52,483 nucleotides of DNA from a virus (lineage: Duplodnaviria; Heunggongvirae; Uroviricota; Caudoviricetes). Where the stretch lies: the IMG/VR virus record IMGVR_UViG_2877251553_000005, one strand, 5' to 3'. Made by a program: the position numbers. Positions within the stretch are counted from its first letter, which is position 1. Each line of letters begins with the position of its first letter. Positions 12,001 to 18,000 of this stretch are shown here, piece after piece.

Positions 12001-15000
12001 ACGACAGACCAAACTATGAAATTCAGGCGTTATTCACGGCCCCGCCAGCTTCGGTGACATCAGAAGGACTGGTTAAAGCTGTGCGCTTTTATGAACAGGT
12101 ACGGCGTGAGGATCCGCCAGTTGAAACCGGAGCATGGAAAGACGCTATTGACTGGGTACTCAAGGAGGCCTGCCTGGTTGTAAACACGGGCATCAAAGGA
12201 GGCTGAATGGGTATTGCCGCAAGTTATACCATGCATCTCTATTGTGATTGCCGCCAGTGTACGGATGGCAAATATCAGTCGCCAGATTTTGGTGAGTATA
12301 TGGGTACGTCATGGGCTGGCTGTGCAAAAGAGGCACGTAAAGATGGGTGGCGAATAAGTGCCGACAAAACGCGTGCTTTTGCGCCAGGGCATAAAATTTT
12401 GAGGAGCAACAAAGGAGAGTGATGTGCCTACATTATTCAGAAAAGAATATCCGCGAAAAAGTAGAGCGACAGAATTTTTGTTTCTCATTCTGTTTATCGT
12501 GTTGATGATACCGATATCCCCGTTAATTCTGGTATGGGGAATCGGAAAAATAATTGAGCCAGTTATTGAATTGTATAACGACGTGGTATGGGCTCCGTTC
12601 AACACACTGCACAATAAAATTAATCCGTATAAGGAAAACTGATATGGCAACTTTGACAAAAAAAGAACAGGCATGGTTGAACGAATTACAGGACGTTCTT
12701 GATCGCTGTCCATCACCGAAAAAAATTGGTTTTTACACCATTGGCGATAAAAGCATTTACCTGTATGACCTGCGCCGCATGGATGAAATCATGGAGGCTC
12801 TTGATAATCGTTCGTCAATGGATTGGTGTGTTGCTGTCCATGATATGAATGCAGGGTTTGATGAAAAGATTTTGTTCCCCTCATCAGTTGAAAGCACTGC
12901 GGGTTAAGGAGTAACACATGACCACTATTACCAAAGAACGTATTGAATTGTTCATTAAAAACCCGCTTGAAAACGGGCTTACCCGTGGTGAACAAATGGA
13001 ACTGGCACGGATTGCGCTGGCATCGCTGGAAGCAGAGCCGGTTGTGTTCTGGTTTGAAAAATATCAAGAAGGGGCTACGGCATGACGACTTTTACCAGAG
13101 AGCAGTTAATAGCTCACGCAGAGGAGACTATTGAAGCACAGAGACTGTGCATACCGGGCACAATCGACCATGACATCATCCGCACATATAAGATAGACTG
13201 GCCCCTGAATCTCCAGACAACCAGTATCACTTAAATAAGTGATAGTCTTAATACTAGTTTTTAGACTAGTCATTGGAGTACAGATGATTGATGTCTTAGG
13301 GCCGGAGAAACGCAGACGGCGTACCACACAGGAAAAGATCGCAATTGTTCAGCAGAGCTTTGAACCGGGGATGACGGTCTCCCTCGTTGCCCGGCAACAT
13401 GGTGTAGCAGCCAGCCAGTTATTTCTCTGGCGTAAGCAATACCAGGAAGGAAGTCTTACTGCTGTGGCCGCCGGAGAACAGGTTGTTCCTGCCTCTGAAC
13501 TTGCTGCCGCCATGAAGCAGATTAAAGAACTCCAGCGCCTGCTCGGCAAGAAAACGATGGAAAATGAACTCCTCAAAGAAGCCGTTGAATATGGACGGGC
13601 AAAAAAGTGGATAGCGCACGCGCCCTTATTGCCCGGGGATGGGGAGTAAGCTTAGTCAGCCGTTGTCTCCGGGTGTCGCGTGCGCAGTTGCACGTCATTC
13701 TCAGACGAACCGATGACTGGATGGATGGCCGCCGCAGTCGTCACACTGATGATACGGATGTGCTTCTCCGTATACACCATGTTATCGGAGAGCTGCCCAC
13801 GTATGGTTATCGTCGGGTATGGGCGCTGCTTCGCAGACAGGCAGAACTTGATGGTATGCCTGCGATCAATGCCAAACGTGTTTACCGGATCATGCGCCAG
13901 AATGCGCTGTTGCTTGAGCTAAAACCTGCTGTACCACCATCGAAACGGGCACATACAGGCAGAGTGGCCGTGAAAGAAAGCAATCAGCGATGGTGCTCTG
14001 ACGGGTTCGAGTTCTGCTGTGATAACGGAGAGAGACTGCGTGTCACGTTCGCGCTGGACTGCTGTGATCGTGAGGCACTGCACTGGGCGGTGACTACCGG
14101 CGGCTTCAACAGTGAAACAGTACAGGACGTCATGCTGGGAGCGGTGGAACGCCGCTTCGGCAACGATCTTCCGTCGTCTCCAGTGGAGTGGCTGACGGAT
14201 AATGGTTCATGCTACCGGGCTAATGAAACACGCCAGTTCGCCCGGATGTTGGGACTTGAACCGAAGAACACGGCGGTGCGGAGTCCGGAGAGTAACGGAA
14301 TAGCAGAGAGCTTCGTGAAAACGATAAAGCGTGACTACATAAGTATCATGCCCAAACCAGACGGGTTAACGGCAGCAAAGAACCTTGCAGAGGCGTTCGA
14401 GCATTATAACGAATGGCATCCGCATAGTGCGCTGGGTTATCGCTCGCCACGGGAATATCTGCGGCAGCGGGCTTGTAATGGGTTAAGTGATAACAGATGT
14501 CTGGAAATATAGGGGCAAATCCAAAGATGGATATTGCTGTTCTGGAAATCGCACTGGTATCGCTGGCAGCAGAGCCAGCCGGTAAATTGCATGAATACAA
14601 ACCAGTGGGATATCAGCGTCTGGTCGATGAGTTAACCATGCTGGTAAAGCAGTTAACCTGGCAACTGAGGAAAGCGAAGCCAGACTGCAAATTACCGGAT
14701 AAGGCGATGAGTTATCTGGAGCGGAACGGACTGATAAGCGTGGAGGATATTTTACGATGACCTGGCCTGAAGCATTAACAACGGTAGGAATTGCGATGGC
14801 GGTGGCGCTGGTGGTGTATTCGATTTGCCGCTGGGGATAAAAACGGTTTGCGGGAAAAGGAGAGTTAAGTAGAATTGCAGCGGGTGCTTGAGGCTATCTG
14901 TCTCAGGCATGAACACCAAAAGGCAGATAGAGAAAAGCCCCAGTTAACATTACGCGTCCGGCAAGACGCTTAACATTAATCTGAGGCCATATCTATGCTC

Positions 15001-18000
15001 TACACACGTAGGTTAGCCTCTTACGTGCCGAAAGGCAAGGAGAAGCAGGCTATGAAGCAGCAAAAGGCGATGCTAATCGCCCTGATCGTCATCTGTTTAA
15101 CCGTCATTGTGACGGCACTGGTAACGAGGAAAGACCTCTGCGAGGTACGAATCCGAACCGGCCAGACGGAGGTCGCTGTCTTCACAGCTTACGAACCTGA
15201 GGAGTAAGAGACCCGGCGAGGGAGAAATCCCTCGCCACCTCTGATGTGGCAGGCATTCTCAACGCACCCGCACTTAACCCGCTTCGGCGGGTTTTTGTTT
15301 TTATTTTCAACGCATTTGAAGTTCTGGACGGTGCCGGAATAGAATCAAAAATACTTAAGTAGCGCGCAGGGATAAGAGGGATGGTCCCTTAAAGGGGAGA
15401 GCTAATTATCCGGAAGGATTCTGATGATGAACATCGAAGAACTGCGTAAAATTTTTTGTGAAGATGGCCTCTATGCTGTGTGCGTTGAAAATGGAAATAT
15501 TGTTAGTCATTACCGCATTGTGTGTTTGCAAAAAAATGGGGCTGCGTTAATTAATTTTGTGGATGCCCGAGTGACGGACGGATTTATCTTGCGCGACGGT
15601 GAGTTTGTCACTTCATTACAGGTATTGAAAGAGATCGGAATAAAAGCTGGCTTTTCTGCTTTTTCAGAAGAATAAACTCATCTACAATCTTGCGCGGGGC
15701 TGAACTCCCGCTGAGTAACACCGTGCCACCGGAGAAAACCGATGGCACGCAACGCAAAATATTACAAACATGATAATTCGACCGTTCTTGCCCACACGCA
15801 CGAGCGGTATTCTCACGCATTTAAGTCAGACTGGTACCAGCATCCCCATGCACTGAAGAACAGGCCGAATGGCTCATTCAGTGTTACCGCAGGCGCGGAT
15901 GCGAGGTTAAAAAAGCCCTTAGCCTCGACTACCGTCACTGGATAATCTCCGTCAGGCTTCCTTACTCCGAACGCCCACCGCGTCTGTCCCGCACATACCA
16001 GCAACGCATCTGGAGATAACGTGCGGGTATTACTTCGACCTGTTCTGGTACCGGAACTCGGGCTGGTGATCGTTAAGCCGGGCCGTGAATCCATGCCGGT
16101 ATTCCACAATACCCGGGTACTGGTGGAGCCGGAACCGAAAAGCATGCGTAATCTGCCGTCCGGGGTCGTTCCTGCCGTTCGCCAGCCGCTGGCGGAGGAT
16201 AAATCATTACTGCCATTTTTCAGCGACGAACGAGTGATTCGTGCTGCTGGTGGCGCTGGCGCATTGTCTGACTGGTTACTGCGCCATGTTAAATCCTGCC
16301 AGTGGCCACACGGCGATTATCACCACAGTGAAACCGTCATTCACCGTTATGGTACCGGCGCAATGGTGTTGTGCTGGCACTGCGACAACCAGCTGCGCGA
16401 CCAGACCTCCGAATCACTCGGGCAACTTGCTCACCAAAACCTGTCTGCATGGATGATTGACGTCATACGCCATGCAATGAATGGCTCGCAGGAACGGGAA
16501 TTATCGCTGGCTGAATTATCCTGGTGGGCGGTCCGCAATCAGGTGGCGGACGCGCTACCGGAAGCGGTATTACGTCGTTCGCTGGGGTTGCGTGCGGAAA
16601 AAATCCGCTCAATGTACCGTGAAAGCGACATCGTACCGGGAGAGCAGACCGCCACCAGCATACTGAAGCAGCGCACAAAAAATCTTGCGCCGCTGCCTCA
16701 CGCCCACCAGCAAAACCCGCCACAGGAAGAGACGGTGGTCAGCATTGCCGTTGATCCTGAGTCTCCGGAATCTTTCATGAAACGACCTAAACGTCGCCGC
16801 TGGGTTAACGAGAAATACACACGCTGGGTGAAGACACAGCCGTGTGCGTGTTGTGGTAAGCCAGCCGACGATCCCCATCACCTGATTGGTCATGGTCAGG
16901 GCGGAATGGGGACAAAATCTCACGATATTTTCACGCTACCGCTGTGTCGGGAGCATCACAACGAGCTTCATGCGGATCCTCTGGCGTTCGAAGAAAAGCA
17001 TGGTTCTCAGGTTGATTTAATTTTTCGTTTTCTTGATCACGCCTTTGCAACTGGCGTGCTTGGGTAAAAGAGGTGACTGATGCTCATAGATTTGGTTTTA
17101 CCTTACCCGCCGACGGTGAACACTTACTGGCGACGCCGTGGCAGCACATATTTTATCTCGGAGGAGGGAAAGCGTTATCGCCGGGCTGTGGCGCTTATTG
17201 TTCGCCAGCAGCGGCTGAAATTAATCCTGTCCGGAAGGCTGGCGATAAAGGTGATTGCAGAGCCACCGGATAAGCGTCGTCGCGACCTGGACAATATCCT
17301 GAAAGCACCGCTGGATGCGCTGACGCATGCGGGAGTGTTAATGGACGATGAGCAGTTTGATGAAATCAATATCGTTCGTGGTCAGCCAGTATCTGGTGGA
17401 CGTATGGGGGTGAAGATTTACCCCATAATGCATGAAGAGCAGGTCAAAAAATGAAACTGGAAGATTTACCGAAATACTACTCCCCAAAATCCCCTGGCCT
17501 GACCGATGTATCGGCCTCAACGTCAAAAGATGCGCTGAGTATCACTGATGTGATGGCCGCGCAGGGCATGACACAGAATCGGGCTGAGATGGGGTTTTCT
17601 GCGTTCCTGGGGAAAATGGGCATCAGTATGAATGACAGGGCGCGGGCAACAGAATTACTGGCAGATTATGCACTCAGTCGGTGCGATCGTGTGGCGGCGT
17701 TGAGAAAACTTCCGGCAGAAATAAAACCGGTAGTGATGCGCATTATGGCTTCGTACGCTTTTGAGGATTATGCCCGCAGCGCAGCGAGTAAAAAGCAGTG
17801 CCCTTGTTGCTATGGGGAAAAATTTATTGAAAGCGTAGTTTTTACAAACAAGGTCCAGTATCCGGATGGTAAGCCGCCGGTATGGGCAAAGTGTACGAAA
17901 GGTGTGTATCCGTCTTACTGGGAAGAATGGAAAAAAGTCAGGGAGGTGGTAAAAGTTGCCTGTCCGGAGTGTGGCGGAAAGGGTGAGGTTTCCACCGCCT

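Follow-up and report, generated by a model that had tools for sequence, protein, structure and literature searches.

A predicted complete hok/mok/sok cassette of the hokD/hokW lineage in a Qin-like lambdoid prophage, next to an unrelated IS2 insertion

The IMG/VR virus record IMGVR_UViG_2877251553_000005 (Caudoviricetes), a stretch of 52,483 nucleotides (nt) that is called the window throughout, very probably carries an intact hok/mok/sok type I toxin-antitoxin (TA) cassette of the hokD/hokW lineage, working by the mechanism established for plasmid R1. The cassette forms a separate module within the nin region of a lambdoid prophage of the Qin type, with small early genes on one side and rem-ydfU-rusA-Q on the other, and its lineage is already known, having been annotated in phage 933W and characterised in the prophage Sp5. 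The original prediction had described a toxin locus with the layout of hok/sok mRNAs immediately downstream of a copy of the insertion sequence (IS) IS2, and this layout is borne out in full: the translational activator element (tac), the anti-Shine-Dalgarno box ucb, the mok frame, the 3' hairpin, the fold-back inhibitory element (fbi) and the terminator are all present. Conservation was assessed on a close-clade alignment of 66 distinct full-length sequences, the window and 933W among them, and a scan of viral contigs yielded 80 loci with an identical Hok.

The toxin and its reading frames

The list of open reading frames (ORFs) contains a frame of 70 amino acids (aa) at 14995-15207 on the plus strand, whose internal ATG at 15052 opens the 51-aa peptide MKQQKAMLIALIVICLTVIVTALVTRKDLCEVRIRTGQTEVAVFTAYEPEE. 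The gene for this peptide (15052-15207, +, stop codon included) is preceded by the Shine-Dalgarno (SD) motif AAGGAG at 15037-15042, and its assignment to the Hok family is confirmed by Pfam PF01848 (HOK_GEF; E=1.2e-23, 82.9 bits with a cut-off of 22) and by PHROG 251, 'MokW-like host killing' (E=2.8e-33). The peptide is 100% identical to K-12 HokD (51/51), and its identity is 92% to HokW of 933W, 82% to HokC and 41% to R1 Hok.

The longer frame is mok, which is in frame with hok, and its ATG at 14995 is the in-frame upstream start that had been postulated. It lies 9 nt downstream of the SD motif GAGG at 14983-14986, is invariant in the 66 relatives, and in the alignment is the position onto which the annotated starts of both mokW (933W) and mokC (K-12) map. 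In 8 of the 66 sequences, however, mok is out of frame with hok and terminates at a TGA overlapping the ATG of hok.

The codon for Tyr47, UAC followed by G (15190-15193, +), forms UACG, the editing motif of TadA. In K-12, the mRNAs of hokC, hokD and hokE reportedly undergo A-to-I editing that converts this Tyr to Cys, with an extent of only about 6% for hokD mRNA (PMC12214031). A second UACG is found at 15146-15149 (+), across the codons for Val32 and Arg33, where editing would be synonymous. The HokD peptide has itself reportedly served as a toxic control (bioRxiv 10.1101/2025.08.07.668861).

The hok mRNA and its fold-back

The long 5' leader that had been predicted is recovered as a full-length match to the Rfam model RF01794 at 14882-15057 (+), which covers model positions 1-157 of 157 with 117 bits (gathering score 59) and E=4e-26. 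The match starts at tac, stops at the hok AUG and lies on the hok-sense strand; it thus reports the conserved hok leader. It should be noted that RF01794 is named 'sok antitoxin' in spite of this orientation, and that annotation pipelines using it would give sok the wrong strand and the wrong ends.

A putative hok promoter can be read from the sequence at 14848-14875 (+), with the -35 hexamer TTGCGG (14848-14853), a 16-nt spacer and the -10 hexamer TAGAAT (14870-14875). The -10 hexamer ends 6 nt ahead of 14882, at which both the Rfam model and tac begin, and in the R1-type reference locus with an intact leader (L087) the -10 hexamer TATGAT is placed equivalently relative to GGCGCTTGAGG. From the start of the Rfam match and the position of the terminator, the full-length hok mRNA is predicted to extend over about 420 nt, from tac to the T run of the terminator (14882-15303, +). 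When 14882-15301 was folded, the minimum free energy (MFE) was -169 kcal/mol, with a z-score of -7.7 relative to shuffled sequences, and it is this value that argues against the layout of the cassette being a chance pattern.

In the MFE structure the 5' end of the mRNA, tac (GGGUGCUUGAGG, 14882-14893, +), is paired with fbi (UCUCAACGCACCC, 15257-15269, +), which lies 50 nt past the hok stop codon. The ucb box AAGCCCC (14935-14941, +) is the partner of tac in the Rfam consensus structure, and its CCCC is, by inspection, complementary to the GAGG of the mok SD motif. If the molecule is cut in silico at 15256, so that fbi is removed, tac is predicted to switch to 14935-14941, that is, to ucb, and the mok SD motif at 14983-14986 becomes mostly unpaired. 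The same switch from a closed to an open form has been described for R1 hok (PMC9841398).

The 3' hairpin and the terminator of the original prediction were also located. The 3' untranslated region (UTR) contains the stem-loop GGCGAGGGA-GAAA-UCCCUCGCC of 9 base pairs (bp) at 15215-15236 (+), which is present in the MFE structure (helix 18) and paired in 99.3% of cases in the relatives, with G-U, A-U and G-C alternating at one of its pairs. It would be the counterpart of the R1 3' stem-loop that shields the truncated hok mRNA from 3' exonucleases (PMC9841398). The terminator scan placed a putative intrinsic terminator at 15276-15303 (+), formed by the hairpin AACCCGC-UUCG-GCGGGUU (15276-15293) and a T run; in its helix (helix 20), three pairs have changes on both sides among the relatives.

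Comparative support for the tac-fbi pairing

When the MFE structure of the predicted mRNA was applied to the 66-sequence alignment, 95.6% of the cells contained standard pairs, compared with 33-43% when the partners were slid by one to three columns. The tac-fbi helix (helix 1) is paired in 100% of the relatives, and the sole changes in it are from G-C to G-U. Furthermore, tac, ucb, the -35 hexamer of sok and the SD motifs are invariant while the adjoining bases vary.

Since tac and fbi are invariant within the close clade, more distant loci were needed to look for covariation. For this purpose, 79 hok loci from other species were collected, and the best partner of tac was sought in the 3' flank of each by motif search and RNAduplex. 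In this in silico comparison tac and fbi change jointly across genera: the pair is GGGUGC/GCACCC in Escherichia and Kluyvera, GGGCGC/GCGCCC in Photorhabdus and Pantoea, GGCGC/GCGCC in R1-type loci, GAAG/CUUC in Citrobacter youngae and GAGA/UCUC, again, in Kluyvera. In most of the distant loci in which tac could be located, its partner falls 45-58 nt past the stop codon, and for loci with a clear match the distance of fbi is about 45-61 nt; the 50 nt of the window fit this pattern. The fold-back elements expected of a known hok leader are therefore not only present, but conserved in the clade and co-varying across genera. The tac motif is missing in 3 of the 80 viral loci, which appear to represent a truncated form like that of K-12.

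The Sok antisense RNA

The original prediction had expected an antisense Sok-like RNA opposite the leader at about 14950-15060. An RNA opposite the leader is indeed indicated by homology, and it overlaps this range, but the range is shifted to the right: the 5' ends of the annotated sokW (AF125520) and sokC (NC_000913) both project onto 15003 when aligned to the window, and the 3' end falls at 14933 (by sokW) or 14927 (by sokC), which gives a predicted Sok of 71-77 nt at 14927-15003 on the minus strand. Upstream of it, a putative sok promoter can be read from the sequence at 15010-15038 (-), with the -35 hexamer TTGCCT (15038 to 15033), a 17-nt spacer and the -10 hexamer TAACCT (15015 to 15010). 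In Sp5, mutation of the sok -10 hexamer to GAGCCG with the primers YO-421/422 resulted in a 'pro-less' construct without antitoxin activity (PMC8621323); the window is identical to Sp5 at the sok promoter, and the hokW probe YO-597 of the same study is an exact match.

Prediction of promoters and terminators on the minus strand, which had been proposed as a check, was of no help: the consensus scan found nothing, and the assignment given above relies on homology to sok genes that have been annotated or mutated. The empty scan is explained by its threshold, because the sok -10 hexamer TAACCT matches the consensus at only 3 of 6 positions and the U tail of Sok begins 4 nt past the stem. For the predicted Sok, taken as 77-80 nt, the fold is a long hairpin (14988-14937) with a U-rich tail behind it (-32.6 kcal/mol, z-score -5.4). 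The sense-strand mirror of this hairpin (helix 5) is paired in 99.5% of cases in the 66 relatives and has three pairs changed on both sides. The predicted Sok is complementary to the SD motif and the AUG of mok.

The stretch at 14988-15009 (22 nt), which comprises the predicted single-stranded 5' tail of Sok, its target and codons 1-5 of mok, is a hotspot of diversity in hokD/hokW cassettes that are nearly identical elsewhere. Its nucleotide diversity in the 66 sequences is 0.31, compared with 0.014 at the third codon positions of hok and 0.04-0.07 in the remaining UTRs, and 17 alleles are found. Two genomes with three loci each have three different alleles apiece, which, with the spectrum observed, would be expected by chance fairly often. 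Either a relaxation of constraint or selection against cross-talk may lie behind this diversity. A more specific reading, which we consider rather doubtful, is that selection has favoured mutually non-cross-reacting Sok/hok pairs, so that each co-resident lambdoid prophage keeps an independent switch for addiction or lysis timing. If true, the window would carry one specificity allele, and the hypervariable tail would bear on the question of how polylysogens avoid cross-talk between near-identical copies of a type I TA system. No discussion of this hotspot was found in the open-access literature that was searched.

Mechanism, role and alternative explanations

The proposed mechanism is modelled on R1 hok/sok and Sp5 hokW-sokW, to which the cassette is homologous. 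A weak promoter would produce the hok mRNA of about 420 nt, in which pairing of the 5' tac with the 3' fbi would keep the molecule closed, untranslatable and unable to bind Sok. Slow trimming from the 3' end would then strip fbi, whereupon tac would re-pair with ucb, and the mok SD motif and the Sok target would be freed. The constitutive and unstable Sok, of about 71-77 nt (from 15003 to about 14930 on the opposite strand), would cover the SD motif and AUG of mok, thereby blocking translation of mok and hence the coupled translation of hok, and the duplex would be marked for RNase III. Once the supply of Sok ends, be it by loss of the element, by a shut-off of transcription or by prophage induction, Hok would be made and would depolarise the inner membrane. 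For the copy in the window, 3' processing, cleavage by RNase III, coupling of mok and hok and killing upon loss of Sok are all assigned by analogy and would have to proceed as in these models.

Several points weigh against an intact and active cassette. Both the hok and the sok promoter are too weak to be detected by a consensus promoter scan. The NCBIfam Hok models reach 48.5 bits with the toxin, which is below their curated cut-off of 73. Within the close clade, the essentially invariant tac and fbi amount to conservation and not to covariation, and the covariation across genera was obtained with loci from motif search and RNAduplex, not with a curated alignment. A HokD-type toxin has Tyr where Cys is needed, and its potency in vivo may be low. 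The evidence on this copy is comparative, in that Sok, both forms of the hok mRNA (full-length and truncated) and toxicity are predictions by homology. Lastly, chromosomal hok loci that were tested earlier, namely hokA, hokB and hokC, gave neither post-segregational killing nor activation by rifampicin, according to the literature as summarised in a preprint (bioRxiv 10.1101/2025.08.07.668861).

One alternative, in line with this last result, is that the cassette only looks complete and is a silenced or harmless relic like the chromosomal hok loci of K-12, where IS elements have disabled hokA, hokC and hokE, and a rearrangement has disabled hokD (PMC12214031). That Tyr47 becomes Cys only via A-to-I editing would fit a relic, and the two IS2 insertions in the prophage suggest decay of the host element. 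However, the cassette itself is untouched by IS elements or rearrangement, its regulatory elements are all intact, with tac, ucb, the -35 hexamer and the SD motifs held constant across the relatives, the third codon positions of hok show very low diversity, and hokW-sokW, at 92% identity, works in the prophage that naturally carries it (PMC8621323). We therefore regard a relic as improbable. An intact cassette could still serve different ends. Its role is most probably the production of Hok when Sok vanishes on prophage induction, as shown for hokW-sokW, for which earlier growth arrest and about twofold phage release after induction have been reported (PMC8621323). With the same mechanism, the main role might instead be stabilisation of the prophage or exclusion of superinfecting phages (abortive infection) and not the contribution to lysis on induction that has been proposed for hokW-sokW. 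R1 hok/sok stabilises plasmids and lowers the plating of T4, and hok genes are about fourfold enriched in prophages (bioRxiv 10.1101/2025.08.07.668861), which makes such a role possible; it is not the one we favour, since, among prophage copies of this lineage, only hokW-sokW has been studied by experiment, with the outcome given above, and since hok genes are not enriched beside defence systems (bioRxiv 10.1101/2025.08.07.668861).

The proximity of IS2 raises a further alternative, namely that the insertion alters expression of hok/sok, either by read-through from IS2 into the cassette, which would in addition run into the opposing sok promoter, or by stopping the early-operon transcription that normally passes over hok on induction. 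An influence on the hok promoter or read-through into the locus had been part of the original prediction. IS2 copy 1 (13194-14523, +; 1330 bp) has the same orientation as hok, and, from 13100 on, the first intrinsic plus-strand terminator predicted is that of hok at 15276. Read-through is thus physically possible, but nothing in the data points to it. The promoter scan found no promoter-like site at the right IS2 junction; at the left junction there is one at 13170-13199 (+), directed towards the transposase genes, in which ATGACA of the flank serves as -35 and, 18 nt further on, the first bases of IS2, TAGACT, serve as -10, but with 9 of 12 consensus positions it is within chance (one such site found, 1.6 expected). 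The right end of IS2, for which a distance of about 370 bp had been estimated, is 358 bp from the putative hok +1 (14882), 325 bp from the putative -35 hexamer and 528 bp from the hok ATG, and the intervening 358 bp include the remnant (233 nt) of a gene and an ORF of 27 aa. Homology to unrelated prophages spans from about 14836 to about 15300, and IS2 ends about 310 bp outside the left boundary, so that the cassette behaves as a discrete module, untouched by IS2; together with its promoter, it is 99.1% identical to IS-free relatives. In addition, the fold-back keeps full-length hok mRNA inert whatever its source, which is established for R1 (PMC9841398) and would apply equally to the window. 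An effect of IS2 on the cassette is therefore very unlikely, and that part of the original prediction is not upheld: IS2 copy 1 is unrelated to the cassette and represents a strain-specific event in the neighbouring upstream gene, and nothing indicates an effect on the intact hok/mok/sok cassette.

The IS2 copies and the prophage setting

IS2 copy 1 interrupts a phage gene homologous to WP_000206826.1 (114 aa). The remnants of this gene lie at 13082-13193 and 14528-14760, the insertion is bordered by a target duplication AAGA(T) of 4-5 bp, and a gene of the same type is uninterrupted in E. coli E7476 and NCTC86 (assembly CP019778). The exact junction of IS2 and flank was found in none of 5426 complete E. 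coli genomes and in none of the GTDB species representatives; three further NCTC86-related records gave only an 87.6% gapped match to it, and IS2 is not present in the 80 viral loci and the few reference loci. The absence of the junction from all searched sets points to a strain-specific event. IS2 copy 1 is one C short in the C5 run near its left end.

A second IS2 copy, 99.6% identical to the first and in the same orientation, is found at 23560-24890 (+). The possibility that the two copies form a composite transposon was rejected on account of their different target duplications, AAGA(T) and GTGGG, which indicate independent insertions. The copies flank a segment of about 9 kb that contains hok, rem, the DUF968/HNH gene, rusA, Q, a DNA methyltransferase gene, two tRNA genes and two STnc100 copies, and recombination between them would delete this segment as a whole.

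The genes downstream of hok (rem, DUF968/HNH, RusA and Q) and DicF upstream of it are arranged as in Qin. Rfam matches were obtained for DicF (5316-5367, -), for two tandem copies of the small RNA STnc100 (20371-20564 and 20840-21028, +), just past the two tRNA genes (19946-20102), and for IS009 RNA (50909-51107, +), and these matches fit a lambdoid prophage of the Qin type. Between the remnant of the interrupted gene and the hok promoter, an unannotated hydrophobic ORF of 27 aa (MTWPEALTTVGIAMAVALVVYSICRWG, 14757-14840, +) has a start codon that shares bases with the stop of the preceding gene (ATGA). It has no match in Pfam, PHROG or NCBIfam. It is present in 33 of 168 fetched loci, and its substitutions fall mostly on third codon positions, a pattern that suggests a real small membrane protein.

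Comparison with known hok systems

The R1 hok/mok/sok system (parB), the mechanism of which has been described (PMC9841398), has the same elements in the same order as the window, namely tac, ucb, the mok SD motif, the sok promoter within mok, hok, the 3' hairpin, fbi and the terminator, and the R1-type reference locus L087 likewise shows pairing of the 5' and 3' ends in its MFE structure. The two differ in that mok of R1 is out of the hok frame, as read from L087, whereas it is in frame in the window, and in that tac and fbi are GGCGC and GCGCC in R1 but GGGUGC and GCACCC in the window, which is a compensatory difference. In addition, the R1 copy is plasmid-borne and the window copy prophage-borne. 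In three of the four R1-type plasmid loci collected as references, the leader is missing its tac/ucb part (L085, NZ_CP135459.1; L086, NZ_CP091588.1; L088, NZ_MT810367.1), and an annotated IS element adjoins two of them (IS150 at L085 and ISKpn28 at L086); it seems that IS damage to hok leaders is common on plasmids too.

The hokC/mokC/sokC system (gef) of K-12, the toxin of which is 82% identical, has an identical tac and a mok frame that is in frame with hok, and the annotated 5' end of sokC aligns to 15003, the base predicted as the 5' end of Sok in the window, although the hairpin of its Sok is about 18 nt shorter. In K-12 hokC, an IS186 within the 3' UTR removes fbi, whereas IS2 lies outside the cassette in the window. 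The insertion of an IS element into the regulatory region, the pattern of K-12 hokA, hokC and hokE, is not found in the window, and its IS2 thus does not repeat the way in which IS elements have disabled the hok loci of K-12.

A comparison with the hokD locus (relF) of Qin, a cryptic prophage of K-12, had been recommended at the outset. The K-12 locus encodes an identical Hok, its DNA is 95% identical from the SD motif of hok past the terminator through rem-ydfU, and it belongs to the same type of prophage, with DicF upstream and a Q-type antiterminator downstream. However, its homology to the window begins only at 15038, 14 nt ahead of the hok ATG, and relBE stands in place of the promoter, tac, ucb, the mok start, the Sok target and most of sok. 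The window has the full regulatory leader and no relBE, and, unlike Qin of K-12, it has rusA between ydfU and Q. The reference hokD of K-12 thus derives by truncation from a cassette that E. coli prophages commonly carry in complete form; the segment used as query is matched in 4957 of the 5426 complete E. coli genomes, the median being 2 matches per genome. Prophage hok genes have been catalogued by the thousands (bioRxiv 10.1101/2025.08.07.668861), and the present result matters mainly for annotation: the locus consists of hok, mok and an antisense sok, while its RefSeq relatives list only 'hokD'.

The closest known system is hokW-mokW-sokW of the Stx2 phages 933W/Sp5 (AF125520; PMC8621323), a working type I TA pair, with 91.8% identity over 523 nt. 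It shares with the window the layout of the cassette, the location in a lambdoid early region and the 27-aa ORF upstream, and the start and frame of mok, the hexamers of the sok promoter, the projected 5' end of Sok, tac, ucb and fbi are the same. The C-terminus of HokW differs (TAYEPEE, compared with VDYESEK in the window), 933W has another allele of the 22-nt stretch for the 5' tail of Sok and codons 2-5 of mok, and it diverges past fbi, where it is without the terminator hairpin of the window and is followed by different genes. The designation 'hokD-type' of the original prediction consequently holds for the protein but not for the architecture, which is that of the hokW-sokW type.

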